From: Candidatus Woesearchaeota archaeon
GTDB lineage: Archaea; Nanobdellota; Nanobdellia; Pacearchaeales; GW2011-AR1
Assembly (NCBI GenBank): GCA_964366925.1
Contig: CAYIVX010000001.1
Coordinates: 1-54,509, forward strand
Direction: 5' to 3'
Length of the DNA: 54,509 nt
The position numbers and the translations under genes were made by a program. Of the stretch, positions 4,826 to 37,116 are shown piece after piece; position 1 is the first letter of the stretch; each line of letters opens with the position of its first letter. The notes under the pieces were generated by a model. That model saw nothing but the letters and a program-made list of their open reading frames with translations, did no database searches and was not told the origin of the DNA.

Positions 4826-4893
4826 TTTTTATTAATTGGCGCAAGCTAAAAATTAAAAGTTAGTTTTAAAAACTAAACTTGTTAATAAGGGGT

Positions 4894-8021: not shown

Positions 8022-8147
8022 TTTATTTTTACCTTCTTTTAGATATTATACTCAATATTTTGTTGTTTTTAATTGTTGTTGTGTTCATTTGAATATAGTA
8101 GATTTTAATTCCATAAGGTTTTTAAACAGACTAAATATATATTCTTC

Positions 8148-9116
8148 ATGGTGGATATTATTAAAGAGGCTGAGAAAGAAGAAAGAAAGGTTGAAAAGTT
8201 CTTTAAAGATAAATCAAATATATGGATGATTGTATCTGTAGTACTTGCGGTTGTTCTTGTTGTTACTTTAGTTATGCCCAGGGGATTAAATGGAGATGCT
8301 GCTGGAAAAACTTTACTTAATTTTTTGAATACAGAGGTTGTTCCAACTGGTGGAGTAACATTAAATAATGTTACAGATAAAGGCAGTTTATATGAAGTTA
8401 GTGTTTTATATAAGGGACAGGATATACCTGTTTTTATTACTAAAGATGGAAAATATTTTATTCAGGGTGCTACTGAAATAAATGCTGCTAAATCTGCTAC
8501 TCCGACTACTCCTACTCAAACTCCTACAGAAGTTCCTAAATCTGATAAACCTGTCGTTGAATTATTTGTTATGAGCTATTGTCCTTATGGAACTCAAGCC
8601 GAAAAAGGGTTTATCCCTATGGTTGAAGCACTTGGAAATAAAGTTGATGCTAAAGTTAGATTTGTTCATTATACTCTTCATGGAGATAAGGAAGTTCAGG
8701 AAAACTATAGACAAATCTGTATAAGGGAAGAACAAGGTGATAAATATTGGAAATACCTAAAATGTATCTTGAATTCAACAGATAGTTCTGCTCCTGCTGA
8801 TGTAACAAAATGTATGACTAGTAATGGAATTAGCACTACTAAAGTTGATGACTGTGTTAAGAATCGAGCTGCAACTTTATATAAAGTAGATTCTGATTTA
8901 AGCCAACAATATGGTGTGCAAGGTTCGCCTACACTTATTATTAATGGTGTAGAATCTAATGCTGGAAGAAATGCGGCATCTTATCTTGCTGGTGCTTGTG
9001 CTGCTTTTAATACTCCTGCTTCTGAATGTTCAAAGACATTGCCTACTGCAAATCCAAGTCCTGGATTTGGATATGGTTCAGATAGTTCTAGTGTTGCTGC
9101 AAGTTGCGGTGCTTAA
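8148..9116 (+). CDS. Membrane-anchored thioredoxin-fold (DsbA-like) thiol-disulfide oxidoreductase
   Basis: N-terminal TM, a T/P-rich linker, then ELFVMSYCPYGTQAE (a CxxG/CPYG active-site-like motif) and GSPTLIINGV near the C-terminus. Confidence 0.6.
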   Translation: MVDIIKEAEKEERKVEKFFKDKSNIWMIVSVVLAVVLVVTLVMPRGLNGDAAGKTLLNFLNTEVVPTGGVTLNNVTDKGSLYEVSVLYKGQDIPVFITKDGKYFIQGATEINAAKSATPTTPTQTPTEVPKSDKPVVELFVMSYCPYGTQAEKGFIPMVEALGNKVDAKVRFVHYTLHGDKEVQENYRQICIREEQGDKYWKYLKCILNSTDSSAPADVTKCMTSNGISTTKVDDCVKNRAATLYKVDSDLSQQYGVQGSPTLIINGVESNAGRNAASYLAGACAAFNTPASECSKTLPTANPSPGFGYGSDSSSVAASCGA

Positions 9117-12231: not shown

Positions 12232-12510
12232 TTATTGTTTATAAACCTTATCAATTTCCCTGGCCAGGATAAAATCTTGCTCTGTAAGCCCTTTTTGACT
12301 TCTTGTTGCGAGTGATATTCTAATTAATAGATTATCCCATGTTATTGTTGGAAAATGAGATTGTTTCTCTGCTAATTCTGAAATTTTGGAAATAAATAAT
12401 TTTGATTCATTGAAGTTGGTAAACTTAAAATCTTTAGTTATTGAGCCAAATTCTAGATTCCAGTTATTTAACTTTTCTGTCTCTTTTTGAATTTCAGATA
12501 AATTTAGCAT
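12232..12510 (-). CDS. Pterin-4-alpha-carbinolamine dehydratase (PCD/DCoH family)
   Basis: 92 aa. Contains NNWNLE...ITKDFKFTNFNESKLFISKISELAEKQSHFPTITWDNLLIRISLATRSQKGLTEQDFILAREID, the typical PCD layout. Confidence 0.7.
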   Translation of the reverse strand: MLNLSEIQKETEKLNNWNLEFGSITKDFKFTNFNESKLFISKISELAEKQSHFPTITWDNLLIRISLATRSQKGLTEQDFILAREIDKVYKQ

Positions 12511-12576
12511 GAGTTATTATTGTTTTATTGATTATAAAGATTTTTATATGGACTTAATCCTTATTTTAATATCTTT

Positions 12577-12649
12577 AGTCCCGTAAGACAGTGGTCAAGT
12601 CTTCGAGATTCTGAATCTCGCAACCCCGGTTCGAATCCGGGCGGGACTA
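12577..12649 (+). tRNA. tRNA-Gln (anticodon CTG)
   Basis: Manual fold: acceptor AGTCCCG/CGGGACT (A1:U72), D stem AGAC/GTCT, anticodon stem CGAGA/TCTCG with loop TTCTGAA, T arm CCCGG-TTCGAAT-CCGGG, discriminator A. 73 nt. Confidence 0.85.
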
Positions 12650-12766
12650 TTTTTATTCTAAAAATAGTTAGTATTTTAATCGGATTCGAACGCACAGAAA
12701 ATCATCTATTTTCTGAGATTTAAAAACAAGTATATTTTTAAATAATCCGGGCGGGACTATTTTTAT
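12634..12766 (+). repeat. Perfect 23-bp direct repeat of the tRNA-Gln 3' end flanking an 87-bp insert
   Basis: AATCCGGGCGGGACTATTTTTAT occurs at 12634-12656 and 12744-12766. The insert carries hairpin CAGAAAAT-catct-ATTTTCTG (12695-12715) and an inverted 11-nt T-arm fragment, CGGATTCGAAC. Confidence 0.8.
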
Positions 12767-12783
12767 AAAATAAATTTTTAGAA

Positions 12784-12945
12784 TTATACTCTTATATTAA
12801 AATCTTTGGCATCTCTAATCTTTTTATCGTGTTGATCCATTTTTCCACTTTGAAGACAAGCATAACAAATATGAATTGTGCCATCTTTTTCTGTTATTTG
12901 AAATGTATTTTTACATTTTGGACATAATGCGTTTTCTGTTGTCAT
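12784..12945 (-). CDS. Small Zn-ribbon protein (53 aa, not in ORF track)
   Basis: Own translation: MTTENALCPKCKNTFQITEKDGTIHICYACLQSGKMDQHDKKIRDAKDFNIRV. It has a CxxC...CxxC pair. Confidence 0.45.
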   Translation of the reverse strand: MTTENALCPKCKNTFQITEKDGTIHICYACLQSGKMDQHDKKIRDAKDFNIRV

Positions 12946-13094
12946 ATTAGTTTTACAAGAGGTGACTATTTAAGTATTTTGTAAGTGTAGGAGATAGGAT
13001 GATTTAAAAAATCAGGGATTTTTTAACACTTCTTCTTAAAACTAATCAACTTCAATAAGAAGTTTTAAAAACATTCTAAAATTTATTCTATCAA

Positions 13095-13167
13095 GCCCCC
13101 ATAGTCTAGAGGCCAAGGACGATTCCTTCTCAAGGAATAAACCCGGGTTCGAATCCCGGTGGGAGCA
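13095..13167 (+). tRNA. tRNA-Glu (anticodon CTC) with a C3:A70 acceptor mismatch
   Basis: Manual fold: GCCCCCA/TGGGAGC acceptor, D GTCT/GGAC, anticodon stem ATTCC/GGAAT with loop TTCTCAA, T arm CCGGG-TTCGAAT-CCCGG, discriminator A. Confidence 0.85.
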
Positions 13168-13345
13168 TTAACCCCTTATGTGATTTTAGTGGGCATCCTT
13201 CTTTAGGATGTGTATGGACTTTATTAAGATCATTGGGATCTTACGAGTTTTTAAACTTTGTCGAGAGAAAATGTCACAAAAAAGTGACTGAACAAAAAAA
13301 GAAAAAAGAAAAATTGGGAATAGAATCATAAACATTACTTTATGG

Positions 13346-13495
13346 CTATTCTTCGTATTCAGCTAAGAGTTCTTGACCCTTCTCAGAATCAAAATCTACA
13401 AAGTCTATGCTGGGCTTATCCATATCAACTTTTCTAAATTGTTTAAGCTTTTCATCTACAGTATATCCTTTGAATGTAGGCAATTCTTTAACCAT
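13346..13495 (-). CDS. Small acidic ORF (49 aa) within the integrated element
   Basis: Own translation: MVKELPTFKGYTVDEKLKQFRKVDMDKPSIDFVDFDSEKGQELLAEYEE. Its start overlaps the stop of the upstream small ORF (ATGGTTAA). Confidence 0.35.
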   Translation of the reverse strand: MVKELPTFKGYTVDEKLKQFRKVDMDKPSIDFVDFDSEKGQELLAEYEE

Positions 13496-13634
13496 TTTTA
13501 GACCTTGAATTTTCTCTCTTTAATTTCCAAGATGTAACATTGAATAATTTTCCTTTTTCTTTTGCTTCTTCAAATGCTTCTTTCAATGCTTTTTCTTCAT
13601 CGAGTTCAAATTCAGAGTTATTTTCTTTTACCAT
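13488..13634 (-). CDS. Small ORF (48 aa) within the integrated element
   Basis: Own translation: MVKENNSEFELDEEKALKEAFEEAKEKGKLFNVTSWKLKRENSRSKNG. It is preceded by AGGAGG 7 nt upstream. Confidence 0.35.
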   Translation of the reverse strand: MVKENNSEFELDEEKALKEAFEEAKEKGKLFNVTSWKLKRENSRSKNG

Positions 13635-13754
13635 TTTAACCTCCTATTCGGTATTTATTTGAATATTTAAATTTTTTTGTAAAAGAATATTTAATTTCCA
13701 TAATACTTATTAACTTTTGATTAATAAATACCTCTTGGATAAAATAAGAACAAG

Positions 13755-14036
13755 TCATTTCTCCTTAACAAACCAAAGCAATATTGGCAAAGCTTCGCCC
13801 TCTCTTTTTAATTTATTAAAAGCTTTTTCAAGATCTTTAGGCTCGTAATAAAAAGTCATTTTATATCCAAATGTAGAACTTCTTTCTTTAAGCTGGGGAA
13901 ATTCTTCTATTACTGGTTTTCTTAAACTCATCAAACTCCAAGAATGAGTGCTTTCTATATAAGATAGTTTTCCTTTTATCTCTAGTTTATTTCTTTGTGG
14001 TCTTAATACTTTTTCTTCCATTTTGCGATGTATCAT
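13755..14036 (-). CDS. Hypothetical protein (93 aa) within the integrated element
   Basis: ORF track entry. No recognisable motif. Confidence 0.45.
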   Translation of the reverse strand: MIHRKMEEKVLRPQRNKLEIKGKLSYIESTHSWSLMSLRKPVIEEFPQLKERSSTFGYKMTFYYEPKDLEKAFNKLKREGEALPILLWFVKEK

Positions 14037-14112
14037 CTCTTTTACATCGCTTTTTTTACTAGACTAATTAAGATAAACTTCTCGAGTTTATAAATTTGGT
14101 TTCGAATTTTCT

Positions 14113-14261
14113 CCTGAACTGTTCAGGGTTTTTCCCTGAACACCAAACTTATCGAGAGAGAGCAATTTTCAAAAAAGTCGAAAAATCCCTGAACACTTTT
14201 TTCAGCAGAAAAGTATTTAAATAGAAGAACCGAATTAAAATTGAGGTGGTGAGGTGTTCAG
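14113..14261. promoter_or_regulatory. Array of CCTGAACA sites (iteron/operator-like) upstream of the 502-aa gene
   Basis: 15-nt palindrome CCTGAACTGTTCAGG at 14113-14127. CCTGAACA at 14135-14142 and 14188-14195. The inverted form TGTTCAG at 14255-14261. The array ends 29 nt before the ATG at 14290. Confidence 0.5.
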
Positions 14262-14289
14262 CCACCCAGACTGATTCTGAGCGAATATA

Positions 14290-15798
14290 ATGAAGTCAAT
14301 GAAACACGACATAATATCTTTATTTGAAGAGAAAGAAACTGAAATCCCAACATCAGAGATAGTCCTAGCTGTTTCTAAAGAATATGCCCAACTAAAGTCT
14401 CAGAAAAACTTCAATCAAGCCAGACAGATTCACAGGAGAGTTCTTTATCACTTAAACATGCTTGTTCGAGAAAACATACTTAGAGTTGATGGCTATGGAA
14501 AGAACGGACAAAAATCCTATGCCTTAAATGTTTCAGAAGGAGAGCAATTAATAGAGATATCTCCTACAAAATATAAAAAAGAACTTATCGGAAACAGAAT
14601 CCTAATGCCAATAATGCCTATTGAAGGATATGAACAGAAAGGTATTGTTATAAAATCTGGATCTTTAACTGAAAAATTAAACTCTATTGTTGTTTTATGT
14701 GATAAATATTCAGGAGAATTAATCCCCTTAGTTAAGAAACTCCTATCTATTATTGACGATTGTATTTGCCTAGAAAATTTTGAAAGAGAGATAAACAAGA
14801 AAAATGTCATTACTCTTGTTAAAGAATTAGATAAAGAATGTTCATTATATGGCAGAAAAATAAGCTTTTCTGTTAATATCTCTGATGTTGAAAAGAGCAG
14901 AATATTAGAATTAATCCGAGAAACAATTAATCTTAAAAGCATAAACTTTGTTTTTGGGATTAATAAAACAGCATTGTTTGAAAAAGCTGATTTAATCTCT
15001 TCTCTTTTTGATATCTATGCTAAAGAAAAGAAAACTATCTTTCTCAAAAATAGAGATAAGTTTGACTTGCCTTATTTTGTGGGTAATATGGGCGTATATA
15101 GTTTTGATGAAGAAGAATGGAATAATATGCAAGAGAAACCAGCATGCATTGCCTGTTCTCAAAGCACTATTGTCCTAGATGTAAAAAAGTTTTATGATAA
15201 CTATGGATTTAACTTAATTCGATTCAAGGAATTGCTTATGAATATCTCTAAATCTTTTCTGGCTATAAATTCTATACAAAGAGGAAAAGTAAGAGACTAC
15301 TTTAAAGAAAATATCCCTGATTATAATATAGATTTTTTGGAATTATCCCGAAATTATATTAGATTATGGAACTTTGGCTTATTAGAGCCAGAATTAGAAA
15401 CAGAAAAAGTTTTAGATATAATTGATAAAGCTAAACATAAAATCGATGAGTTTGCCCGAACACAGGATAGAATATACAACAGCTGTGGAATGTCAATAAG
15501 ATTCAAGCTTGCTTTAAATCAGGCATCTAAGCAATCTGCAGAGAGTTTAAGCTCAGCAAAATATAAACAGATGCAGATAGACGGATTAAATTCAATAATT
15601 GCAGATTTAAAAGACAGAATAGAAGAAACTTCAAAAGTTTCCTCTTATTTTGATGGAGGCATACATGTTAAGTTTCATCGAATTGGAAAAATAGAAAATT
15701 CTAAAGAATTGCTTAATGAAGTTTCTCTTCTTCTGAATAGGCATAACCTCGCTTTCTTTTCTTATGATATGGAGGGATTAGAATATGGTAGAAATTAG
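14290..15798 (+). CDS. 502-aa protein of unknown function with probable N-terminal winged-helix domain
   Basis: The N-terminal ~85 aa (IPTSEIVLAVSKEY...RRVLYHLNMLVRENILRVDGYGKNGQKSYAL) look wHTH-like. The rest has no P-loop or other motif I recognise. Confidence 0.55.
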   Translation: MKSMKHDIISLFEEKETEIPTSEIVLAVSKEYAQLKSQKNFNQARQIHRRVLYHLNMLVRENILRVDGYGKNGQKSYALNVSEGEQLIEISPTKYKKELIGNRILMPIMPIEGYEQKGIVIKSGSLTEKLNSIVVLCDKYSGELIPLVKKLLSIIDDCICLENFEREINKKNVITLVKELDKECSLYGRKISFSVNISDVEKSRILELIRETINLKSINFVFGINKTALFEKADLISSLFDIYAKEKKTIFLKNRDKFDLPYFVGNMGVYSFDEEEWNNMQEKPACIACSQSTIVLDVKKFYDNYGFNLIRFKELLMNISKSFLAINSIQRGKVRDYFKENIPDYNIDFLELSRNYIRLWNFGLLEPELETEKVLDIIDKAKHKIDEFARTQDRIYNSCGMSIRFKLALNQASKQSAESLSSAKYKQMQIDGLNSIIADLKDRIEETSKVSSYFDGGIHVKFHRIGKIENSKELLNEVSLLLNRHNLAFFSYDMEGLEYGRN

Positions 15799-16435
15799 CG
15801 GAAAAACATCAACAGAAGTCTGGAAGAAAATATTAAAGACTATTATGACTGAAGGAGACTCGTTTAAAGATAGAAGAAAAAGAATCTGCAAAGAAATTTT
15901 AAATGTCTGTGCTACAATTCAGACTACAGATGGAATAATGAAACCTATTGAAACACTTACTAAATTCAATAAATGGATTTATCCTACTCCTGAAAAAATT
16001 AAGAATTCAATTCTCAATAAAGAAGATTCTTCAGAATATTATTATAATTACGGAAAACGGGCTTTTGATCTAGACGGAATAAATCAGATTGATGATTATT
16101 TAATCCCTCTTCTTAAAAAAACTCCGACATCTAAGAGAGGAATCGTTGTTTTTTATTCGCCTGAAAAAGATACTCTTCCCTTAAGAAAAGAAACCCCCGG
16201 TATTGTAATGATTAATTTTATTATTAGAGATAATAAACTTCATTCTACGATGGTCATAAGAAGTAATGATATGTTTCATGGATGGCCTGGAAATGTTGCT
16301 CAAGCATATTTCTTAACAGAGTATGTAGCTGAAGAACTAAATTATCCTATTGGTTCAATAACTACTTTTTCCATTTCAGCCCACATATTTGAAGAGCAAT
16401 TTGAAGATATAAAGAAAGTTATAGGGCGTATATAG
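15785..16435 (+). CDS. Thymidylate synthase (ThyA/dCMP-HMase superfamily) homolog lacking the catalytic Cys
   Basis: [21 protein letters not shown] aligns to E. coli [45 protein letters not shown] aligns to IDQITTVLNQLKNDPDSRRIIV. The P-C-H nucleophile position reads P-G-I. Overlaps the upstream gene by 14 nt. Confidence 0.7.
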   Translation: [216 protein letters not shown]

Positions 16436-16460
16436 TTTTGATTAAGAAGCTGGAGGATTT

Positions 16461-16574
16461 TTATTTATTCCAAATTAGGAATAAATTAATCCACTTTTGA
16501 AGCCTTGACTTCTTCTTAAGTTTCTCAATTTCTTCTTTTTGTTCTTTTAATTCCTTTTCAATTTGTTCTTCCAT
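16461..16574 (-). CDS. Possible 37-aa ORF immediately downstream of the integrase
   Basis: Own translation: MEEQIEKELKEQKEEIEKLKKKSRLQKWINLFLIWNK. The ATG lies 1 nt after the integrase stop. Weak support. Confidence 0.25.
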   Translation of the reverse strand: MEEQIEKELKEQKEEIEKLKKKSRLQKWINLFLIWNK

Positions 16575-16575
16575 C

Positions 16576-17733
16576 TTAGATATCCTCCTTTATCTCTAAA
16601 TGTAAGCTATCCGCTACCATATCGAACTTTTTAATATATTTTTCAAGATTTGCCAGCCGTTCTTGCATTATAACCTTCTCTTTCTCAGATTTTTCGAGTC
16701 TTTGCTCAATTTCGGTTTTTGTTAGATCTAGAAGCATATCTTCCTGACTTATCGTATCCTTCATTCCCAATAATTCAGAATAATAATGGATTTTATCGCT
16801 TTTTTTCCAGCCAAATCTATACTTTAAGGCAGATTCAGACTTATATCTTGGAAGCCAGTAACAGCAAGCATTATGTCTAAAATCGTATAAAGTTAATTCA
16901 GAATATTTCTGCCCAGCAGGGCTTTTTCCTTCACCCAGTACTCTCGTAGCTAATCTTTGGAGATACTGATTTGTTCTGCTCGGGCTTATTTTAAATAGAT
17001 AATCTTCAGAGTTTAATTGGAAAACCTTGATATATTCTTTGATTAATTCTGAACTTAACATTAGCTTAATTCTTCTTCCGAAAGTTTTGCTGATTTCATC
17101 TCGTATATTAAGCTCTTTGAAATCATTAAAGAAGTCTGATACTTTTATATTCATTAATTCTGTAGGCGCCCTAATTCCCGTATCAAAAAGAAACATCATT
17201 AAGACTTTATAATTAAATTTAGCATTATCACATAATTGCTTGACCTGCTCTTCAGTTAAATATACCCAATCAGGTTTATCTCTAGAAGTATCAAGATCGA
17301 TAGTTATATCGGGTATATCTTTCCCTTTTTTCCTATTAACTTTTTGATACCAGTGCCAGAAAGCCTTGAATGCTTTAACATAATCCGCAGTTGCTATAAA
17401 CACCTCGCCATTAAGCCTTCTTATCTCTCCATAACGCATTCCTGAGAAAAAGCCCATTAGTTGTTCTTCACTAATATCTATCACACAATCAAGATCGTGC
17501 AATTCCTTAAATTTCTTTGAAAAGAAAATAAGTCTATTCTTTAAAGAATTCAGTCTTGAATGGCTTCTAGACCCTTTAACACTTTCTTGAGCAATATTTA
17601 ACCCCTTTTCCATATCGTTTAGATATTGAAGTATAATTGCAGAATTTTTTTGACTTACACTTGCAATATTCTGCTGATTTTTATCTTTCCATGCAAGATA
17701 CATTTCTTTATGTTTGTACGGGTCTATTTTCAT
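16576..17733 (-). CDS. Tyrosine recombinase / integrase
   Basis: Has FDTGIRAPTEL (box I Arg), LYDFRHNACCYW (H/R box) and SDKIHYYSELLG (candidate catalytic Tyr). 385 aa with a coiled-coil C-terminus. Adjacent to the right att-like repeat. Confidence 0.85.
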   Translation of the reverse strand: MKIDPYKHKEMYLAWKDKNQQNIASVSQKNSAIILQYLNDMEKGLNIAQESVKGSRSHSRLNSLKNRLIFFSKKFKELHDLDCVIDISEEQLMGFFSGMRYGEIRRLNGEVFIATADYVKAFKAFWHWYQKVNRKKGKDIPDITIDLDTSRDKPDWVYLTEEQVKQLCDNAKFNYKVLMMFLFDTGIRAPTELMNIKVSDFFNDFKELNIRDEISKTFGRRIKLMLSSELIKEYIKVFQLNSEDYLFKISPSRTNQYLQRLATRVLGEGKSPAGQKYSELTLYDFRHNACCYWLPRYKSESALKYRFGWKKSDKIHYYSELLGMKDTISQEDMLLDLTKTEIEQRLEKSEKEKVIMQERLANLEKYIKKFDMVADSLHLEIKEDI

Positions 17734-17840
17734 GTTTTATTGAAAGCAAGAGTTTTAAAAACTCTCTTGTATTTTTACCTGTACATACTCATCTTAGAGT
17801 AAAGGATGCCCGCCGAAAGTCACACAAACGTATAGGTATC

Positions 17841-17978
17841 GGTGGGGGCATTTTGCTGCTAAAGAATGAAGCAGTAGGCCACCAAGGTTCAGAAACTGAA
17901 GATTTCTGACTCTCCAACTCTCGCGAGTTGAAGACAATAAAAATTCAGAAATAATTTTTTAGCTGGTGGGGGCATTAA
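17841..17978. repeat. Duplicated tRNA-Glu 3'-end fragment GGTGGGGGCATT flanking a 112-bp insert
   Basis: The 12-nt repeat occurs at 17841-17852 and 17965-17976. The insert carries hairpin TCAGAAA-ctgaaga-TTTCTGA (17889-17909) and hairpin CAACTC-tcgc-GAGTTG (17915-17930). Confidence 0.6.
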
Positions 17979-18725
17979 TTAAACTTCTATTTTAGAAAAC
18001 AAATAACTTCCAATAATTGTAACTATGAAAGAAATAATTATTAATACAAAAAAGTCAGTTGCTAATCCTAAATGGCTTATTCCTGTTAGGGCTCCTCTTA
18101 TTCCATCAACACCATAGGAAAGAGGATTTAGTTTGATTATGAATCCTATTGCTGCTGGCAGGCTGTCTAAGGGAAATAATGCTCCTGATAAAAAGAAAAC
18201 GGGCATTATAATAAAATTCATAATTAGTTGAAATCCTTGCATATCTTCTAATTTTGAGGCTATTGCAGTTCCTAGTGCAGTGAATAATATTGCAATTAAA
18301 AATATAAAAATCATTGCTATTGGGATCATTGTCCAATTTGTAGGTCTGAATCCTATTAACAAAGATATTAAGAAAACTACAAGTCCTTGAATTGAAGCAA
18401 CAGTCGCTCCGCCCATTGTTCTTCCCAACATTATTCTATATCTTGAAACAGGGGCAACAAGAGTTTCTTTTAGAAATCCGAATTGTCTATCCCAAATGAT
18501 TTCTATACCATTAAACATTGCGGTGAATAATACCGACATGGCGATTATTCCCGGAGCTAGAAAATCAATGTAATTTCCTCCACCTGCTTTTTGAAATATT
18601 GGACCAAATCCAAATCCCAAAGCTACCAAAAATAATAAGGGTTGTGCTAAAGAGCCAACTATTCTAGTTTTAGATCTGAGATATCTTTTTACTTGTCTCA
18701 ACCACATAATATAAATTGCACCCAT
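17979..18725 (-). CDS. ABC-2 type transporter permease
   Basis: 248 aa with six hydrophobic spans. Immediately downstream of the ABC ATPase, with the typical ABC-2 layout. Confidence 0.8.
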   Translation of the reverse strand: MGAIYIMWLRQVKRYLRSKTRIVGSLAQPLLFLVALGFGFGPIFQKAGGGNYIDFLAPGIIAMSVLFTAMFNGIEIIWDRQFGFLKETLVAPVSRYRIMLGRTMGGATVASIQGLVVFLISLLIGFRPTNWTMIPIAMIFIFLIAILFTALGTAIASKLEDMQGFQLIMNFIIMPVFFLSGALFPLDSLPAAIGFIIKLNPLSYGVDGIRGALTGISHLGLATDFFVLIIISFIVTIIGSYLFSKIEV

Positions 18726-19523
18726 TTATCTTCTCCACATCCTCCTATGTGCTCTTAATCCATCTTTAGCTGAAGCTTGTTCTTCTCTAATGGCATGTCC
18801 GGTTAATTTAAGAAAAGCTTCTTCAAGAGATTTTGAATTGGTTTCTTTTTTTAATTCGTTAGGAGTTCCTTTTAACATTATTTTTCCATGATCTATAATT
18901 GCAATACTATCTGCCATTTTTTCTGCCTCTTCCATATAGTGTGTTGTTAGAAATATTGTCATGTTTTCTTTTTTATTAAGTTTCATGATATATTCCCAAA
19001 GAAAATTTCTTGTTTGAGGGTCTAGGCCTATTGTAGGTTCGTCAAGAAATAATATTTTTGGATGGTGAATAAGCCCTCTTGCAATTTCGAGTCTTCTTTT
19101 CATGCCTCCTGAAAATGTTTTAACTAAATTATCTTTTCTAGCCCATAGCTCTACTAATTTCATTAATTCGGGAATTCTTTTTTCGCTTAATTTTTTTGGA
19201 ACATTGTATAAGACCGCATGAAATTCCATATTTTCATAGGCTGTAAGTTCATCATCTAAACTTGGATCTTGAAATACTATTCCGAATGATTTTCTTACTT
19301 CATCGGTATTTGATATGGGTGAAAAATCATTTACTTTTATTTCTCCAGAGGTTGGATGCAGAAGAGTAGTAAGCATTTTTATTGTTGTAGTTTTTCCTGC
19401 TCCATTTGGACCAAGAAATGCAAAAATTTCTCCTGTTTTTACGTTAAAAGAAATATTATTTACTGCCGTAAATTTTCCGAATTTTTTAACTAGATTTTTT
19501 ACTTCTATAATCTCTCTTTTCAT
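18726..19523 (-). CDS. ABC transporter ATP-binding protein (DrrA/CcmA-like)
   Basis: Walker A is GPNGAGKTT, Q-loop is VFQDP, signature is FSGGMKRRL, Walker B is ILFLDEPTIGLD, and the H-loop is TTHYMEEA. Confidence 0.9.
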   Translation of the reverse strand: MKREIIEVKNLVKKFGKFTAVNNISFNVKTGEIFAFLGPNGAGKTTTIKMLTTLLHPTSGEIKVNDFSPISNTDEVRKSFGIVFQDPSLDDELTAYENMEFHAVLYNVPKKLSEKRIPELMKLVELWARKDNLVKTFSGGMKRRLEIARGLIHHPKILFLDEPTIGLDPQTRNFLWEYIMKLNKKENMTIFLTTHYMEEAEKMADSIAIIDHGKIMLKGTPNELKKETNSKSLEEAFLKLTGHAIREEQASAKDGLRAHRRMWRR

Positions 19524-19692
19524 TTTATTAAAAAGTTTTCAGGGTTTATAAATTTGAGTTATCCAAAGCTTCTTAAATGGATTTTATTTAATTTGAGGAG
19601 ATTATATTCATCACAATTCATAGTCATCCCCACTAAGGTTGGGATGATAGCACTGCGGCTCGCGGCGCCGCAGTGCACTCATATTCCTTAAT

Positions 19693-20262
19693 ATGCCAAT
19701 ATACATAATAGAACATTTGGAACCTCAACTTTGGGACTGGTGTTTAATTGAATATGAAAATATTTCAAATATAGTTGGAAAAGAGAATCTTTGGTTTACA
19801 AATATAAAATCCTCTTTGGAGAGTAAAAAACTTGAGAAATTTGGCAAAGTTTTTTCAGATAGTGTTCGTAAGATGAAACTGAGGGGTGTATGTGTTTTAG
19901 ATCCTGATGCTGAAAAAACACTGGCTCCTTCTGATAAATTTGAATATTATATTTTTGGAGGTATTCTTGGTGATTTTCCTCCAAGAAAAAGAACAAAAGA
20001 AGAATTAACTAAGTTTATTAAAAATTCACAGGTAAGAAATATCGGGAAAGAACAGATGTCTACAGATAATGCAGTTTATACTGTTAAACAAATTGCAGAT
20101 GGAAAGAAATTTGAAGAATTAAAGTTTATTGATGATGCGGTTATTCAATTGAGTGAGTTTGAAAGTGTTGAATTGCCTTATAGATATAATCTTGTTAATG
20201 GAGAACCTTTTATGAGCAAGAAGATTGTGGAATATATTAAGAAGAAGGGTGCGTTTAGATAG
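19693..20262 (+). CDS. SPOUT-fold methyltransferase of the DUF431/Sfm1 family
   Basis: IYIIEHLEPQLWDWCLIEYENIS, VCVLDPDAEKTL, YYIFGGILGDFPPRKRTKEL and MSTDNAVYTV closely parallel yeast Sfm1 (YOR021C) as I recall it. Confidence 0.65.
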   Translation: MPIYIIEHLEPQLWDWCLIEYENISNIVGKENLWFTNIKSSLESKKLEKFGKVFSDSVRKMKLRGVCVLDPDAEKTLAPSDKFEYYIFGGILGDFPPRKRTKEELTKFIKNSQVRNIGKEQMSTDNAVYTVKQIADGKKFEELKFIDDAVIQLSEFESVELPYRYNLVNGEPFMSKKIVEYIKKKGAFR

Positions 20263-20300
20263 ATTTTTTAGAGTTAGTAATTAAAACTTTAATTTTGAAA

Positions 20301-20540
20301 ATTTCGTAAACATTATTCTTTAAAAATTTATTAATGTACTATTTCGGAAGCAAAAGTTTAATCTGAATAGGTCTTACAAATTTTTAGCTGTAAGTTTTTG
20401 GTTTAGAGTAATTTATTATTAATGCAATAAATTTTGGAAGCAGAAGTTTTGTGAAGAGGTAAGTTTTGGATTTGTGGAATTATCAATAATCATTAAATTT
20501 ATGCGAAGCAGTCTCTTAAAAAATTGAGCTTATCAATTTT
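20301..20540 (+). repeat. Family-1 intergenic repeat, two tandem diverged cores plus 3' module
   Basis: ATTTCGTAAACATTATTCT at 20301-20319 is identical to 32572-32590. The cores begin ATTAATGTACTATTTCGGAAGCAAAAG and ATTAATGCAATAAATTTTGGAAGCAGAAG. The module TATGCGAAGCA is at 20500. Confidence 0.6.
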
Positions 20541-20580
20541 TCTTCGTTAAACTTATAAATAGCTGAAACAATATTTAATA

Positions 20581-21117
20581 ATGAAAGAGGGAGAAGTAAT
20601 AAAAGAGCTTAGGCAGGCAAATATTAGCCTCATACTTGATTCTTATGAAGATATTTTTTCAAGTTTTGATCCACGGGAATATTCTGAACGAGCATTATCT
20701 GATGATTTTTTAATAGAGTGTAATCATGCTGCCATGGATAAGGGTGAGGGTATTGAACTTATTTTATCTATGCCCAAAAATAAACGAAATTTTAATGATG
20801 AATTTAAAATTAAAAAAAGATTAAAAGAACATTTTAAAAAACATTTTCTTGAAAAGCAAAAGGAACAAAAAGCTATTAAAAAACAAGGAATAATTTGGAT
20901 TTTAATTGGAACAATTCTTCTTTTTACAGAAACTTTTATTAAAACATATAGCTCTGGTTTTATTTTAAATATGTTAAGCTTGATTATGGAGCCCGCAAGC
21001 TGGTTTAGTTTTTGGGAAGGGTTGGCTAAAGTATTTATTTATGCTAAACAGGAAGTTGTTGATTATGATTTTTATAAAAAAATGGCTAATGTTTCCGTAA
21101 CATTTATTTCTTATTAA
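20581..21117 (+). CDS. Hypothetical protein with C-terminal TM segments
   Basis: 178-aa ORF with a K/E-rich middle and two or three C-terminal hydrophobic spans. Its stop abuts the start of the pilin-like gene. Confidence 0.5.
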   Translation: MKEGEVIKELRQANISLILDSYEDIFSSFDPREYSERALSDDFLIECNHAAMDKGEGIELILSMPKNKRNFNDEFKIKKRLKEHFKKHFLEKQKEQKAIKKQGIIWILIGTILLFTETFIKTYSSGFILNMLSLIMEPASWFSFWEGLAKVFIYAKQEVVDYDFYKKMANVSVTFISY

Positions 21118-21609
21118 ATGGGACTTTCAAAAATCGGTTTGATAAAAAATAAGCAGGGATGGCTACGAATAGTTGAAGCTTTTATTTCCGTAATGTTAAT
21201 TATGGGTGTTGTTTTAGTTGTTGTCTCAAAAGCTCAGCCAAAAACTTCTACTGCTGATGAGATTAGAAGGATTCAGAAATATGCTCTTGATTATGTTACT
21301 AATGATGAAACTTTAAGAAATCAGATTCTTAGTGGTAATTTGATGGGGGTTAATGATAAATTGAAATCAATTATTCCTGGAAATTTGAATTATCTTATTC
21401 GGGTGTGTAATTTTAATGATGTTTGCTCATTTACTAATGGTTCAAAGGGCATTATTGTTTCTACCGAAGTTTATTCTGACGAGGCCCCAATTTTTGCAAA
21501 TCTTACTTATTATGATCCTGCTAATCCTAAAAAATTAAAACTGTTTTTTTGGGAAGGTAATTATCCTGCAGATGTTACACCCCCAAATTATTCAGTTAGA
21601 CAAGTTTAG
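21118..21609 (+). CDS. Type IV pilin-like protein (class III signal peptide candidate)
   Basis: The N-terminus is MGLSKIGLIKNKQGWLRIVEAFISVMLIMGVVLVVV: a basic leader, a Gly, then a hydrophobic helix containing a Glu. The remainder looks like a secreted domain. Confidence 0.45.
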   Translation: MGLSKIGLIKNKQGWLRIVEAFISVMLIMGVVLVVVSKAQPKTSTADEIRRIQKYALDYVTNDETLRNQILSGNLMGVNDKLKSIIPGNLNYLIRVCNFNDVCSFTNGSKGIIVSTEVYSDEAPIFANLTYYDPANPKKLKLFFWEGNYPADVTPPNYSVRQV

Positions 21610-21619
21610 AAATCAAGAT

Positions 21620-22240
21620 TTATTCTTCAAGAACTATTCTTGCATCAATAACTTTAGCTTTATTTTTTGAAATGGTTAAGGGATTAATATCTAATTCAAT
21701 TATGTTTGGATGTTTTTTTACTAAACTTTGTATTTTATCTATATTTTTTTCTATTTCTTCAAGAGTTACATCTTTTTCTTCTAGAATTTTATAAAACTTA
21801 GTCTCTTTAATCATTTCTTTTAATTCTTTTTTAGTTGTTGGAAGAACTCTAAAAGAAACGTCTTTTTCTTTTTCTACATTAATTCCACCGTGTCCGAATA
21901 AGATTATATGCCCAAATTCTGGAGTTTTTTTAATTCCAATTATAGCTTCTTCTCCAGAGAACATTTCTTGAACTATTGCTTCTTCAAAGCCTTCTATTTT
22001 TGAAAGTTTATCAAATGCTTCTTGTGCAGACATTGAATTATTTATATCCAATATAACTCCGCCAACCTTAGCCTTGTGTGCTATCTTTGTAGAACTTAGT
22101 TTCATTGCCCAGGGAAATTTTATTGTTTTTGCTGCTGTTTTTACTTCTTCGCTACTTTTTATTGAAGCTCTTTTGATTACCTTAAATCCTTCTTTTTCTA
22201 GAAAGTTTTCAGCTTCTTTTTCAGTTAATGTTTTTTGCAT
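21620..22240 (-). CDS. acdB: ADP-forming acetyl-CoA synthetase beta (ATP-grasp) subunit-like protein
   Basis: 206 aa. EAENFLEKEGFKV...KFPWAMKLSS...HKAKVGGVILDI...GFEEAIVQEM is typical of an ATP-grasp_5 domain. Divergent from the alpha subunit gene. Confidence 0.65.
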   Translation of the reverse strand: MQKTLTEKEAENFLEKEGFKVIKRASIKSSEEVKTAAKTIKFPWAMKLSSTKIAHKAKVGGVILDINNSMSAQEAFDKLSKIEGFEEAIVQEMFSGEEAIIGIKKTPEFGHIILFGHGGINVEKEKDVSFRVLPTTKKELKEMIKETKFYKILEEKDVTLEEIEKNIDKIQSLVKKHPNIIELDINPLTISKNKAKVIDARIVLEE

Positions 22241-23732: not shown

Positions 23733-23744
23733 TTCTTTAATTTG

Positions 23745-23923
23745 CACTTCGTTATTATTTAACTAATATTATTAATGCACTATCTCGGAAGTAGAAGTTT
23801 GGGCTTTAATTAGCTGGGAAAGTCTGAACAATTTGGATTGGTTTTATTGGATTATTATTATTATTATTATTATTAAAATTTATGCGAAGCACTTATTTGA
23901 AAAAAGCGAGCCGAAGGCTAGCC
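23745..23923 (+). repeat. Family-1 intergenic repeat (best-preserved copy, with (ATT)8 microsatellite)
   Basis: The 93-bp core at 23768-23860 differs at 4 positions from 32595-32687 by my count. (ATT)8 is at 23851-23874. The 3' module TATGCGAAGC...AAAAAAGCGAGCCGAAGG is at 23881-23918. Confidence 0.75.
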
Positions 23924-23927
23924 AGGA

Positions 23928-24806: not shown

Positions 24807-25020
24807 TGTTTAGAATGCACGAGTGATTATCAAAAAAACAATTTGCTATCATACCTTAAACGGTGTGGTTTGTAAGGGCATTTGTTTTTTGGATGAAGGA
24901 AATTTCAATGAAATTTTCTACCCTGAAAATTATTTTAATTTTCAGTGATCCAAAACTTAAAACAGTAAAGCTACTACCTCCTTCTAAAGAATTGGGTTTT
25001 AAGTTTATGGACATAAAAAA

Positions 25021-25467: not shown

Positions 25468-25737
25468 ACCTAAGATTGGAACTGGATATTTATAAATTGT
25501 TTGTTAATGTTAAATAAACTATCTAACTTAACACAATGCTTGCTTTGACCCCCAATAACCTGCACAAGTTCTACTCGCAACAGCACTTTAAAAAGAATAT
25601 CTAAATTAGCTAAAGTGCCATTGCTCGGTTATTACTATTAATTATTAATAATGTCTATAGAAAATAGGCGAGCAGGAGGAGCCTATTTAGGTTTGTGTAG
25701 TTATCAGTAATGTAAGGATTTAAGGTTTACTTAACAG

Positions 25738-25999: not shown

Positions 26000-28900
26000 A
26001 TGGGGTGGAGTTTATTTGACGAAAAAGGGGATATTTTGCCCGCAAAGGTTTTTAGTAATGGAAAAAATCAGGAAGATGTTGTTCTAGAAGTAGTTAATGA
26101 AATAAAAAAAGGTACAAAAATTATTTTTATTCATGGAGTTTGTGGTAGCGGGAAATGTCTTGAAAAGAATACCCGAATATTCTGTAAACCGAAGGGGATT
26201 GACTACTTGGGTTATTATCCAATTTCTCAACTTGTTGGAAAAGAGGGAATTATAGTTTCGCTGGATAAAACGGGTAATATGGTTGAAAGTAAATTTACAA
26301 ATGTCGTAAATAGTGGTAAAAAGAGGCTATATAAAATAAAAACAAGAACGGGTAGAGATTTGCAATGTTCGATTAATCATCCGTTCTTGACAATTACGCG
26401 TAATGGTTTAGAATGGTTACCTTTAGAAAAATTAGATAAAAATTCCTATATTTGTTTGCCAAATAAGACCTCTCTTAAAAATCAAGCCTCTTTGGACAAA
26501 AATAAGATTAAGATTTTAGCTCATTTAATTGCTGAAGGTAAATTAGGCGATAAAAATGGTTCACCTAAATATTATCAAAATCCATTGACTGATTTAGAAG
26601 TAAGGCAAGATTATGAAAATGCATTAAAGAAATTATTTCCCGAAGGACAATTAAAGAGTTCTTCTCCTTGTGAGGTCACTATGGCATTTAATAATAAAGA
26701 TACTAGATTTGGAACTACTAATAAACTTAGACTTTTAATTAGAGAGTTTGGTTTAGACGGCGGGAAGTCGGGGGATAAGTTTGTTCCGCCAATTATTTTT
26801 AATTTAAATGATGCTGATGTTGCCTTGTTTTTAAAAACCTTATTTTCAGGAGATGGAACTATTTATGAAAAAAAGAGTCATGCAAGAGAGAATTCTACGA
26901 TTATTGTAGAATATTGTTCTATTTCAAAAAAACTTATACAAGATGTTTCTATGCTTTTAATGAGATTCGGAATACAACACACGATAACTCCCAAAAAATT
27001 TAGAGAAGATAAAAATTATTCTTGGACTATTCATATCTCCAATCAAAAACAAGTTAGAAAATTTATCAAAAATATTGGTTTTATTGGTAGAAAACAGGTA
27101 TTTGCTGAAAAAGTATTAGGAAGTTTACAAGATCATAAATTTACCAACATAGATAAAGTTCCAAGAGTTATAAGAGAATATTTGAAAGATAGGGGTTATA
27201 CTTATAATGATCTTTATCGATTCTTGAATTATACTGAATTTGAAAAATTTAAGGATGTGGGATTTAAGAAAATTTTGAATAAGAAATTAGTAAGTTGTCC
27301 TTTTGTGTTTAGACAACAGAAAATAGACTTTTTGAGAGAACATATAACAAAAATAAAGGAACATATTAAAGACGCTACTCCTGATTTTATATGCAGTGAA
27401 GATATTTTTTGGGATAGATTAGATAAAATTGAATTTATTGGAGAGGATGAAACTTATGATTTGGAAGTTCCACATTATCATAATTTTATTGCTGATGGAA
27501 TTATTGTGCATAATTCGGCTATCGCTCTTAATATTGCTCGTGAACTTGGTAGGGCTAGTATTGTTGTTCCAATAAAGAATCTTCAGAGACAATATGCTGA
27601 GGATTATACTAATAAAAAATATGTTCTTAAAAAAGATGGCAAAAAATTAAAAATATCCCTGATTACGGGTAGAAGAAATCATATTTGCCCTTACTTGAAA
27701 GACAATCAAAAAGATATTTTATTAAGCAGAATTAGAGAGAAAAATGCAAATCTTACAGATATTTTTTCAGGAGTTAATTCTTCTAATTTTCATCGAAAGA
27801 ATGCAGAGGAGGATGATTCTTGTGATAATTATCTTATCCCCTGTAAAATTGAAATAAAAAGCAAAAATATTTCTACACTTAAGAAATATTATAATGAGAA
27901 TCCTGATAGGAAAGATAATTCGGAACTAGATTTGAAGGTTGCTAAGAGATTTGCGGTTGCTCCTGCTTGTCCTTATTGGAATCCTATTTTGCCTACTGAA
28001 ATGAATGTCAAGAACGATTGGTTAAAAAAAGAATATAAATCTGTTGCAGGGAGTCATACTATCTATGTTAGAAAAGATGGATGCCCCTATTATCGACAGT
28101 TTGAAGCTTATGCGGACTCTGATGTAATTATCTTTAATGGCGATCAATATATACTAGAAACTGCACTTGGAAGAAAGCCTTCTACTGATGTTGAAATAAT
28201 TGATGAGTGTGATGAATTTTTAGATAATTTTGCACTGGAGGGATCAATAAATATTACTAGGTTGAGAAATGAATTGTCCGGAATTATGTGTAGTGATGAT
28301 GCTCAAAGAAAACTTGTTGATGGGCTTAATGAGGGGCTTCTTGAAATTCTTGAAGAGTCTTCTAAGAATATTGATAAAAAAGATAATATTCTTGAAGTTA
28401 ATAAAACTAAAGTTTCTGAATTAATTGCCGCACTTGTTAAAAGTGATGTTTTTGAAATTATGAGTGATGAAAGTTATTTGGAGCATTGTGTTGAAGAAGC
28501 AAGAAAATTTTTTGATGTTATGGATGAAAGTTTTGTTAATTATTATAAAGATAAAAATCGAGGAGATATCTTTGTTAAACTTGTTACTATTAACTTAGAT
28601 AAGCTTCTTTCTTCTCTTATTGAAAAGAATAAGGCTTTTGTTTTTATGTCTGGAACTCTCCATAGCAAAAGAGTTTTAGAAGAAATTTTTGGATTGAAGG
28701 ATTTTAAGATTATTGATGCAGAAACTTTTAAGCTTGGAACTATTAAAAAACTTAGAACAGGTTTAGAGCAGGATTTAAAATTTGATAATTTTGAAAAGAA
28801 GGTAGTTAGTCGTGAAAAATATTTATTGGCCTTGGATAAGTGTGTTGAGATTGCTAAAATTCCTATTCTTGTTCATGTTAGTGCATTTAATGATTTGCCT

Positions 28901-29293
28901 TCGACTAATGAAATTGAGCAATTTAGACTAAAGAATCTTATCAGTTTTTCAGAATTAGTTGAACAGCAAAATTCAGATCGTGAAGGAAAGATGGTAAATG
29001 ATTTTAAGGCAGGAAAAATAAAAATTCTTTTTACTACAAGATGTAATAGGGGTATTGATTTTCCTTTTGAGACTTGCAATAGCGTTGTAATAACTAAATT
29101 TCCCTATCCTAATACCCAGTCTTTATTTTGGAAAATTTTAAAACAAAATAAGCCCGATATTTTCTGGGATTTTTATAAAGATAAAGCTTATAGGGAACTT
29201 TTGCAAAAAGTTTATCGAAGTGTTCGGGCGGTTAATGATTCTGTTTTCTTGCTTTCCCCAGATATACGTGTTATGAATAGTAGTGTTGTGTAG
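26000..29293 (+). CDS. XPD/Rad3/DinG-like superfamily-2 helicase interrupted by an intein
   Basis: The extein P-loop is HGVCGSGK|...|SAIAL. Cys-rich insert: HICPY, SCDNYLIPC, ACPYWNP, GCPYYRQ. DExD-like IIDECDEF. GIDFPFETCNSVVITKFPYP and QKVYRSVRAVNDSVFLLSPDIR resemble XPD motifs V/VI. Confidence 0.75.
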   Translation: MGWSLFDEKGDILPAKVFSNGKNQEDVVLEVVNEIKKGTKIIFIHGVCGSGKCLEKNTRIFCKPKGIDYLGYYPISQLVGKEGIIVSLDKTGNMVESKFTNVVNSGKKRLYKIKTRTGRDLQCSINHPFLTITRNGLEWLPLEKLDKNSYICLPNKTSLKNQASLDKNKIKILAHLIAEGKLGDKNGSPKYYQNPLTDLEVRQDYENALKKLFPEGQLKSSSPCEVTMAFNNKDTRFGTTNKLRLLIREFGLDGGKSGDKFVPPIIFNLNDADVALFLKTLFSGDGTIYEKKSHARENSTIIVEYCSISKKLIQDVSMLLMRFGIQHTITPKKFREDKNYSWTIHISNQKQVRKFIKNIGFIGRKQVFAEKVLGSLQDHKFTNIDKVPRVIREYLKDRGYTYNDLYRFLNYTEFEKFKDVGFKKILNKKLVSCPFVFRQQKIDFLREHITKIKEHIKDATPDFICSEDIFWDRLDKIEFIGEDETYDLEVPHYHNFIADGIIVHNSAIALNIARELGRASIVVPIKNLQRQYAEDYTNKKYVLKKDGKKLKISLITGRRNHICPYLKDNQKDILLSRIREKNANLTDIFSGVNSSNFHRKNAEEDDSCDNYLIPCKIEIKSKNISTLKKYYNENPDRKDNSELDLKVAKRFAVAPACPYWNPILPTEMNVKNDWLKKEYKSVAGSHTIYVRKDGCPYYRQFEAYADSDVIIFNGDQYILETALGRKPSTDVEIIDECDEFLDNFALEGSINITRLRNELSGIMCSDDAQRKLVDGLNEGLLEILEESSKNIDKKDNILEVNKTKVSELIAALVKSDVFEIMSDESYLEHCVEEARKFFDVMDESFVNYYKDKNRGDIFVKLVTINLDKLLSSLIEKNKAFVFMSGTLHSKRVLEEIFGLKDFKIIDAETFKLGTIKKLRTGLEQDLKFDNFEKKVVSREKYLLALDKCVEIAKIPILVHVSAFNDLPSTNEIEQFRLKNLISFSELVEQQNSDREGKMVNDFKAGKIKILFTTRCNRGIDFPFETCNSVVITKFPYPNTQSLFWKILKQNKPDIFWDFYKDKAYRELLQKVYRSVRAVNDSVFLLSPDIRVMNSSVV
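26156..27514 (+). mobile_element. Intein (453 aa) with LAGLIDADG homing-endonuclease domain inserted in the helicase Walker A motif
   Basis: Starts with Cys (CLEKNT). Block B is CSINHPFL. LAGLIDADG motifs are ILAHLIAEGKLGD and LFLKTLFSGDGTIY. The C-terminus reads YDLEVPHYHNFIADGIIVHN, followed by +1 Ser. Confidence 0.85.
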
Positions 29294-29325
29294 TTGTATT
29301 TAGTTTGTGCTTTGCATAATTTTAA

Positions 29326-29410
29326 CGATTTTATTAATAATTTTATAAACTTGAGGGCAGAATTGGCTTTTTTAGTTGTAATATTTGGTTTATTATTATT
29401 ATTATTATTA
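29326..29410 (+). repeat. Family-1 intergenic repeat, degenerate copy with (ATT)6
   Basis: TTATTAATAATTTTATAAACTTGAGGGCAGAATTGGCTTTTTTAGTTGTAATATTTGGTTT followed by (ATT)6 at 29392-29409. Weaker similarity to the cores at 23768 and 32595. Confidence 0.35.
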
Positions 29411-29528
29411 ACTAGTTTTATTGAAGGAGTTTAACTATAAAAGCGGGTTTTAGTTGAGTGATATATTTTATACTAAATTTATTCTCGATTGTAAAAACAT
29501 TTATATATAAGCTGTTTATGAATATATT

Positions 29529-32555: not shown

Positions 32556-32571
32556 ATTTAGTTATTTAAAG

Positions 32572-32735
32572 ATTTCGTAAACATTATTCTAAAAATTATT
32601 AATGCACTATCTTGGAAGTAGAAGTTTGGGCTTTAATTAGCTGGAAAAGGCTGAACAATTCGGATTGGTTTTATTGGATTATTATTAAATTTTCTATAAG
32701 TGTAAGCCTCTCTTAATAATTCTAGCGAAGCTATA
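32572..32735 (+). repeat. Family-1 intergenic repeat
   Basis: The 19-nt arm at 32572-32590 is identical to 20301-20319. The 93-bp core at 32595-32687 is ~96% identical to 23768-23860. Starts 17 nt after the stop of the 32259-32555 gene. Confidence 0.75.
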
Positions 32736-32737
32736 TT

Positions 32738-36901: not shown

Positions 36902-37116
36902 GATTTTTACAGGTAGGAGAGATTTAAAAATGTGTTTATTCAGTTTCTGCTAACGCATAAATTATGTTCAAACAAAACTAATAATTAATAACAAGTCGGA
37001 TTTAAGTTAGGGCATTATTAAGAAGTTTTTAGGTGAGCAATCGAGCCGAGTAAGTTCACAAGTGTAATTTTATTATTGGCGAGTGGGCTTACGAGCAAGA
37101 GGAGATTGCGAGTGTT

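Follow-up and report, generated by a model that had tools for sequence, protein, structure and literature searches.

The stretch of DNA analysed here, referred to as the window, is 54,509 nucleotides long, has a G+C content of ~30% and carries housekeeping genes of archaeal type, among them those for RFC, PheRS, deoxyhypusine synthase, archaeosine TGT, Rpb7, S24e and RNase P p30. Its CoA-ligase protein is also encoded on a contig of the 0.1-um metagenome of Hainich groundwater well H43, and among named genomes the closest is the MAG 'Nanoarchaeota archaeon H43-bin036_1'; the host is a DPANN archaeon, with a Hainich groundwater Nanoarchaeota/DPANN genome. The CoA-ligase gene and a convergent Dus gene end on either side of a spacer that is filled, from stop codon to stop codon, by a non-coding repeat, and relatives of this repeat (family 1) lie in other spacers of the window. 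The copies are as follows, the E values being those of a hidden Markov model (HMM) built independently of the window.

23733-23927, plus strand: full element filling the spacer from the CoA-ligase stop (23732) to the convergent Dus stop (23928); HMM match 23741-23911, E 2.2e-16. Sub-blocks: A, mini-hairpin region GCACTTCG, 23744-23751; B, ATTATTAATGCA, 23768-23779; C, GGAAGTAGAAGTTT, 23787-23800; centre, 23801-23839; E, GGTTTTATTGGATTATTATT, 23840-23859; (ATT)8, 23851-23875; F, GCGAAGC, 23884-23890; G, AAAAAAGCGAGCCGAAGGCT, 23900-23919.
32556-32737, plus strand: full element flanked by the stops of a 98-aa gene (32555) and a convergent 169-aa gene (32738); HMM match 32571-32724, E 7.5e-18; F hairpin TAGCGAAGCTA, 32723-32733.
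20288-20408, plus strand: tandem unit 1, with blocks A, B and C and a short centre, 26 nt past the stop of an SFM1-like methyltransferase gene; HMM match 20300-20371, E 1.3e-8.
20401-20537, plus strand: tandem unit 2, with B, C, a centre of type D2, E, F (GCGAAGC, 20503-20509) and G, just upstream of the promoter of a 178-aa gene (ATG 20581); HMM match 20411-20528, E 2e-14.
46392-46555, plus strand: full element exactly filling the 164 nt from the ScpA stop to the convergent rhomboid stop; F hairpin of variant form, ATGC-TTG-GCAT; HMM match 46391-46520, E 2.4e-8.
4680-4861, minus strand: inverted copy in the divergent-promoter spacer between TRM5/TYW2 (plus) and a 94-aa gene (minus), with two GCGAAGC hairpins (4687-4693, 4711-4717) and block C at 4804-4791; HMM match 4850-4691, E 8.8e-9.
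29299-29446, plus strand: degenerate or doubtful copy after the stop of an intein-containing helicase gene, with (TTA)7 at 29390-29410.
43209-43215, minus strand: solitary GCTTCGC mini-hairpin, an arm motif occurring on its own and not a family copy, 37 nt past the S24e gene stop.

Summed over the listed parts, family 1 makes up roughly 2% of the window. Alignment of 20 copies reveals the anatomy of a unit, which is ~150-190 nt long and non-coding, and which may be repeated in tandem arrays of two or three. Block A comprises a short ATTTAG-like lead-in, a TTCG mini-hairpin (GCTTCGC, GTTTCGTAAAC or GACTTCGTT) and then AAACATTATT or ATAAT..TTAA. Block B, TTATTAATGCA, includes the TATA-like TTATTAAT, holds five of the nine invariant alignment columns (A.TAAT) and, in roughly half of all copies, comes after an AAAAA(T)T run. 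Block C, TTYGGAAGCAGAAGTTT, with the conserved GGAAGCAGAAGTTT, is the best-conserved block and is found on the left side only; counting by hand on the alignment, 13 of the 20 copies keep it at 13 or more of 14 positions. Beyond the variable centre, block D, which is of at least two types, come block E, TTTGGKTTTATTGNATTATTAATAAT, the inverted counterpart of B that contains TTATTAAT in inverted form; block F, (T)ATGCGAAGC(A), the exact complement of GCTTCGC and in most copies a GCGAAGC mini-hairpin; and, in several copies, block G, TCTCTTAAAAAAGCGAGC. Each unit thus has two inverted arms, composed of a GC mini-hairpin (GCTTCGC left, GCGAAGC right) and ATTATTAAT, around a variable centre, and together with the one-sided position of C this makes the element a degenerate palindrome with an asymmetric insert. 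Run on the opposite strand, the family HMM still matches its own copies, if weakly. The description of the copies as non-coding was borne out, for their longest ATG-initiated open reading frames span 2-40 aa, differ in frame and strand and include none that is conserved; a coding reading was rejected, the MHYLGSRSLGFN peptide not being retained in other copies.

The earlier note, made from the letters of the window alone, had described this as a dispersed family of intergenic repeats, and the observation is confirmed. To avoid circularity, the independent HMM was trained on 13 copies that all came from outside the window genome and was then run against the window, with reversed sequence as a decoy; it recovered six copies at E values from 7.5e-18 to 2.4e-8, the best decoy scoring 1.9. 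Among the six are the diverged copies that had been placed at 20301-20540 (as two tandem cores), at 46404-46518 and, inverted, at 4684-4825, all with E at or below 2.4e-8. The near-identity of the core pair also stands, at 95% over 96 nt (23765-23860 against 32592-32687), with four mismatches within the 93-nt span first given, as does that of a 19-nt arm, ATTTCGTAAACATTATTCT, which is the same at 20301-20319 and 32572-32590. A GC-richer module had been noted too: GCGAAGC occurs seven times against 1.48 expected from shuffles, five of the seven lying in element spacers and on the element strand, while GGAAGYARAAGTTT matches the window 14 times at up to two mismatches against 4.07 expected. The (ATT)n tracts are present where they had been seen, at 23851-23875 and 29390-29410. 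One claimed copy, at 29326-29410, is marginal: the independent HMM gives it E 0.64, and its support consists of a seed-inclusive HMM, which is circular (E 4.4e-8), and of a position in common with relative L154 (19196-19389) only. Fragments proposed near 25660-25690 (E 0.47) and 37040-37110 (E 8.5) found no support from the independent HMM, on whose scores 25635-25690 and 36987-37110 were rejected as family copies.

Searches of related MAGs and contigs brought further copies to light, at least 17 beyond the six significant ones of the window. It is scarcely conceivable that the family is an artefact of low-complexity, AT-rich similarity or of assembly chimerism, since, although the arms are AT-rich (ATTATTAAT) and the inverted repeats of individual copies are not significant, the 95% identical pair, the gap between HMM and decoy scores and the enrichment of GC-containing motifs all argue otherwise, the same loci are found in contigs of other studies, and chimerism is excluded by independent replicate assemblies (L001, L060, L132 and L143) that match the window over 18.4-33.2 kb at 99.9% identity or more. 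Two of these replicate Hainich contigs break within the tandem family-1 element, L132 ending at window position 20455 and L143 starting at 20287, as is expected because repeats fragment short-read assemblies.

The two best copies share their 95% identity from B to E only, their outer arms being different, and the family is therefore mosaic; this indicates recombination or recent copying. Most other pairs of copies within the genome are only ~55-65% identical, so that the copies must be old. Spacers in this genome are generally rich in repeats, and several other intergenic repeat families, unlike family 1, are found at 11932-12000/39339-39407, 22303-22356/33296-33349, 2970-3017/4341-4388, 17888-17934/54280-54326, 3021-3066/25569-25614 and 12695-12726/22348-22379; some of these contain CCCTTCGGG or CAGAAAATC...GATTTTCTG hairpins. 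An 896-aa protein of unknown function has internal repeats (29683-29863/29902-30082 and 30468-30521/30723-30776) in the form of Cys-rich 'CPNGC..G.C' units.

Copies are found mostly in the 3' flanks of genes. Thirteen of 20 independent arrays start between -6 and +34 nt from a co-oriented stop codon (of an ORF of at least 80 aa) and a fourteenth follows a 53-aa ORF; in the window, five copies begin 5-26 nt past the stop of a plus-strand gene, in agreement with the earlier description. Spacers between convergent genes are filled entirely by the element at 23733-23927, 32556-32737 and 46392-46555 and in L074, so that, 8-15 nt past its stop, each of the two genes meets a hairpin of GCUUCGC type. 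Between genes of the same direction, seven arrays are co-oriented and one is anti-oriented, by hand count. Past the Dus stop, the reverse strand of block G presents a GC hairpin, GCTAGCCTTCGGCTCGC, followed by T6. Three arrays lie in divergent-promoter spacers, including 4680-4861 and L033 3966-4269. Of the 57 genes in the window only five have a copy right after the stop, a sixth (Dus) abutting the far end of one of these copies, and TTCG occurs within 60 nt of the stop in nine, six of them beside family copies.

True copies in relatives were identified by pattern scans and HMM filtering of the fetched loci. Besides the window genome, the family is present in H43-bin036_1 (L017, L032, L033), in other Hainich contigs (L089, L120), in ORJL01 (L074), in Ga0082335 (L141) and in the ERZ27253369/Ga0209514 lineage (L154, L164; the E lineage), that is, in at least three related lineages, and it is restricted to one sub-clade; the 3-21-kb loci fetched from L157-L159 and L161-L163, at 66-77% protein identity, yielded no copies, and the relatives whose fetched regions lack the family range overall from 52 to 77% protein identity. 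Two viral scans (IMG/VR) produced no family copy, their lone match being a false one in a coding region (L160, identical with L091). Pattern matches in L002, L010 and L021 proved to be radA coding sequence, and most of the remaining matches in genomes and metagenomes are chance matches in AT-rich bacteria. In one 75%-identity relative, L162, the neighbour of the PheRS locus is a giant gene, over 9,300 codons long (12364-21650 and beyond), and the window has no counterpart to it at that position.

Comparison of orthologous sites shows that the family turns over by gain, loss and tandem expansion. Trees of six proteins out of six unite the window with the Hainich relative, to the exclusion of the E lineage. 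Between ScpA and rhomboid, where both flanking C-termini are orthologous, the window has the 164-nt element and the Hainich relative (L166/L167) has 0 nt, with abutting stops, while three tandem units stand directly past the ScpA stop in the E lineage. The 3' flank of the CoA-ligase gene is 195 nt long in the window, is occupied in the E lineage and is only a 31-nt spacer in L032; the spacer between SFM1 and the 178-aa gene measures 318 nt, with two units, in the window against 29 nt in L159. In L154 a ~100-nt direct repeat in two copies (7998-8190) follows the SFM1-like stop and precedes the family-1 copy. Both the window and the more distant E lineage have elements at the 3' ends of four genes (SFM1, CoA ligase, helicase and ScpA), yet copies at shared positions resemble each other no more than randomly paired ones do (0.47-0.58, with a median of 0.54 for random pairs), and for this reason vertical descent and independent insertion are inseparable by sequence. 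The helicase gene itself (26000-29293, Helicase_C_2, 1097 aa) contains an intein with a LAGLIDADG domain; its L154 orthologue (17272-19197) is 641 aa long with no intein match, and the two lineages thus differ in having the intein.

The window and L032 both carry a tandem element ahead of the 178-aa gene, and here sequence conservation is uneven. Blocks A to C of the orthologous elements are 87% identical and E to F 72%, and the centre is scrambled; four-fold degenerate sites are 51% identical between the two genomes, against 37% expected by chance. This shows that the conserved blocks are either under selection or homogenised. In the second unit, B and C are intact in the window and decayed in L032, from which it follows that single copies are not all constrained.

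In explaining these observations we favour, with moderate confidence, the view that the family is a non-autonomous, palindromic, non-coding selfish repeat resembling MITEs, REPINs and Correia elements and residing in the 3' flanks of genes. Its repetition, architecture, placement, turnover and mosaicism are observed directly. As for its mode of spread, which we infer, it would move as non-autonomous DNA, either with the help of a transposase whose gene lies elsewhere and whose substrates are the arms or their hairpins, or through gene conversion between copies, or both. Its persistence would stem from the tolerance of insertions just past stop codons; at the RNA level, the element would there be co-transcribed as a 3' UTR and may serve as a 3'-end or insulator module. 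We count in favour of this reading the independent HMM, the distribution among relatives, presence and absence at orthologous sites, tandem arrays, B-to-E mosaicism, the reverse-strand matches of the family HMM, the inverted termini of one copy (L154d), placement at stop codons, orientation bias, the TTCG motifs near stops, the decay of B and C in the second unit of L032 and the assembly breaks within the tandem copy.

Several observations count against it. An examination of inverted termini and target sites, as the earlier note had advised, gave a mixed result: the 54-nt terminal inverted repeat of one copy (L154d, 19199-19384 in L154) reaches z=6.1, while in the other 14 of the 15 copies tested such repeats are no better than in dinucleotide shuffles, and no consistent target-site duplication emerged from filled and empty sites at ScpA|rhomboid and SFM1|178-aa, whose junctions are AT-rich and overlap stop codons. 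There is no transposase among the ~55 genes of the window, nor a longer element bearing the family arms in any fetched locus. Relative L164 (ERZ27253369 k141_682735) does encode an IS200-like Y1 (HUH) transposase at 16598-17053 (Y1_Tnp, E 3.2e-26), between the Rpb7 and prefoldin genes, and the equivalent region of the window lacks it. The gene is flanked by GC-rich hairpins, TCCGCCCCTTTTAAGGGGCGGA and TCCGCCAAAGGCGGA (TCCGCCCC..GGGGCGGA), that are unrelated to the family; with no adjoining copy and no family HMM match in its flanks, it was rejected as the transposase partner of the family. The retention of block C in old copies, the conservation of A to C between the window and L032 and the four shared 3' ends are explained by a host function, or by vertical persistence over the long term, no less well than by recent transposition.

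The element has analogues in several known systems. Prokaryotic MITEs, such as the SM elements of Sulfolobus (PMC11602168, PMC10969869), are likewise short, non-coding, multi-copy and intergenic, with inverted arms, a presence/absence distribution and no transposase of their own; in contrast to these, the terminal inverted repeats of family 1 are degenerate and mostly not significant, no target-site duplication was found at its sites, it has no known parent IS, its most strongly conserved block is internal and one-sided, and several positions are shared across species (at ~70-85% protein identity). With REP/BIME sequences and the REPINs mobilised by RAYT (PMC3116915, PMC3733652, 10.1101/2021.07.10.451892) the family shares two inverted hairpin arms around a spacer, a location behind genes and between convergent ones, a bias in orientation, long-term vertical persistence with conserved sequence, tandem or clustered arrangement and an HUH Y1 transposase gene, here in relative L164. 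However, its hairpin cores are 7-11 nt long (GCGAAGC), unlike the 20-40-nt REPs, its alignment shows no GTAG/CGTC tag, and the Y1 gene of the relative is flanked by hairpins unrelated to the family, unlike a REPIN-RAYT pair. Correia/NEMIS elements of Neisseria, ERIC and RUP/BOX are similar as palindromic intergenic repeats of ~100-160 bp, accounting for a few per cent of a genome and often near gene ends, that are co-transcribed with their neighbours, carry promoter-like boxes and, in the case of BOX, are modular. They have no sequence relation to the family, which is archaeal, has a TATA-like box rather than -35/-10 elements and displays no demonstrable TA duplication and no known IHF-type site. 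To our knowledge, REPIN-RAYT systems have been described in bacteria only.

We have therefore filed family 1 as working like a MITE and a REP/REPIN, and not as a proven member of either class, because several defining tests had a negative or mixed outcome (terminal inverted repeats, target-site duplication and parent IS for MITEs; REP length, GTAG tag and a flanked RAYT for REP/REPIN). MITE-like repeats are a known kind, while the family itself is new and uncatalogued, and it has two unusual traits, the one-sided conserved 14-mer and the occupation of the same genes at their 3' ends in different species. The earlier remark that such repeats are unexpected in a streamlined archaeon was overstated, since a MITE census records some of the highest archaeal densities in DPANN genomes, a Woesearchaeal one included (PMC11602168).

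An alternative, possible but unlikely in our judgement, is that the element is not mobile at all but a 3'-end or insulator cassette maintained by the host, its arms being hairpins that terminate transcription or stabilise mRNA (in both directions where two genes converge), with selection retaining the copies and gene conversion homogenising them. Much of the placement described above suits this idea: arrays that start 0-35 nt past co-oriented stops, the hairpin met by both convergent genes, the GC hairpin and T6 beyond Dus, the 7:1 orientation bias, the 87% identity of A to C against 51% at neutral sites and the same four 3' ends occupied in two lineages. Against it, a copy directly follows the stop of only five of 57 genes, close relatives whose stops abut dispense with the element, and copies also occur in divergent-promoter spacers; moreover, the forward strand has no T5+ run near block A, the mini-hairpins have only 2-4 bp, fold energies are no better than those of shuffles, and it is not obvious what part block C or the TATA-like box would play in termination. 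Of the readings offered originally, both the MITE-like one and that of a shared 3' UTR/terminator module are compatible with the palindromic build, post-stop placement, presence/absence, tandems and confinement to one sub-clade.

The third of those readings, an sRNA family, fared worse, at least as a structured RNA. RNAalifold predicts 0 consensus pairs, for the centre alone and for the whole element; z-scores of single-sequence folds, from -1.9 to +1.4, are significant on neither strand against shuffles; and Rfam returned no match at E<=1 over 19.6-33.3 kb and only tRNAs in the gathering scan. Reading of the copies revealed no convincing C/D or H/ACA boxes. A small central hairpin, TTAGC..GCTGA, has one compensatory change only, as read by eye, and although T-A, A-T, C-G and G-C are all seen as third pair of the F mini-hairpin, its eight variants other than T-A divide by hand count into four paired and four mismatched, which is not significant. 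Other RNA features were noticed in the window. At 53166-53292 Rfam reports a 127-nt tRNA (50 bits), presumably with a long intron, that ARAGORN missed, and a stand-alone ORF with a LAGLIDADG domain (51002-51943) overlaps the 5' part of tRNA-Glu(UUC) (51897-51969) by ~47 nt. In the spacer between Dus and a 148-aa gene, 109 nt (24882-24990) are 91.7% identical to L141 1947-2054 (Ga0082335, an unrelated metagenome); the pair has a conserved three-helix fold, with an outer stem and two hairpins, its differences lie in a loop, and it has no Rfam match at E<=1. This stretch is a candidate for an unannotated ncRNA.

A promoter-bearing variant of the RNA reading is decidedly unlikely. In it, copies would be small ncRNA genes in which B (TTATTAAT) is a TATA box following an A-rich, BRE-like run, transcription starts at GAAGTTT, and conserved flanks enclose a variable, guide-like centre; alternatively, and under the same low estimate, an antisense RNA would be transcribed from the inverted box in E and end at the T5 run to the left of B. 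The evidence comes from the promoters of the window, where the box TTATAAAT, at no more than one mismatch, starts exactly 28 nt before the start codon of nine genes (including those with starts at 1427, 20581, 25467, 42091 and 51002; 50 nt upstream were examined). This implies that these genes probably have leaderless mRNAs and a very rigid promoter geometry. TTATTAAT is one mismatch from TTATAAAT, position +28 from B falls on the G of GAAGTTT (predicted starts at about 23797, 32624, 20356 and 20446), and the spacing is 24-29 nt across copies as read from the alignments; the invariant columns in B and the A-rich run before it agree with this. Yet in so AT-rich a window chance alone would produce the 8-mer TTATTAAT ~25 times, and the folding and Rfam results speak against a structured product. 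An unstructured transcript may arise from the TATA-like box.

Very doubtful, lastly, is the proposal that the family is active rather than passive DNA: either an archaeal, vertically inherited replicator of REPIN type, on whose single-stranded GCGAAGC/GCTTCGC hairpins an HUH/Y1 enzyme would act, or a set of promoter-bearing sRNA genes defined by the TATA-like box with GGAAGCAGAAGTTT, an inverted arm and a fast-changing, guide-like centre. The DNA mini-hairpin d(GCGAAGC), associated with Hirao and co-workers, is reportedly extraordinarily stable. In most copies the right arm is exactly GCGAAGC and the left arm its complement, GCTTCGC, and by analogy we infer that the motif may act in the element as a hairpin of single-stranded DNA.

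DPANN genomes are tiny and are assumed to be stripped of non-essential DNA, yet ~2% of this window belongs to a single repeat family that has persisted across species. Family 1 marks synteny breakpoints and assembly breaks, and is a marker for tracking strains and lineages in groundwater metagenomes. If the repeats are purely selfish DNA, they show that symbiotic archaea of ultra-small size can host thriving miniature mobile elements, apparently with no transposase nearby. A REPIN-type replicator or a promoter-bearing sRNA family, if either were true, would be new for DPANN archaea. Should the stop-adjacent arms instead shape the 3' ends of mRNAs, they would offer a first handle on how transcripts end and are insulated in compact genomes with leaderless mRNAs.
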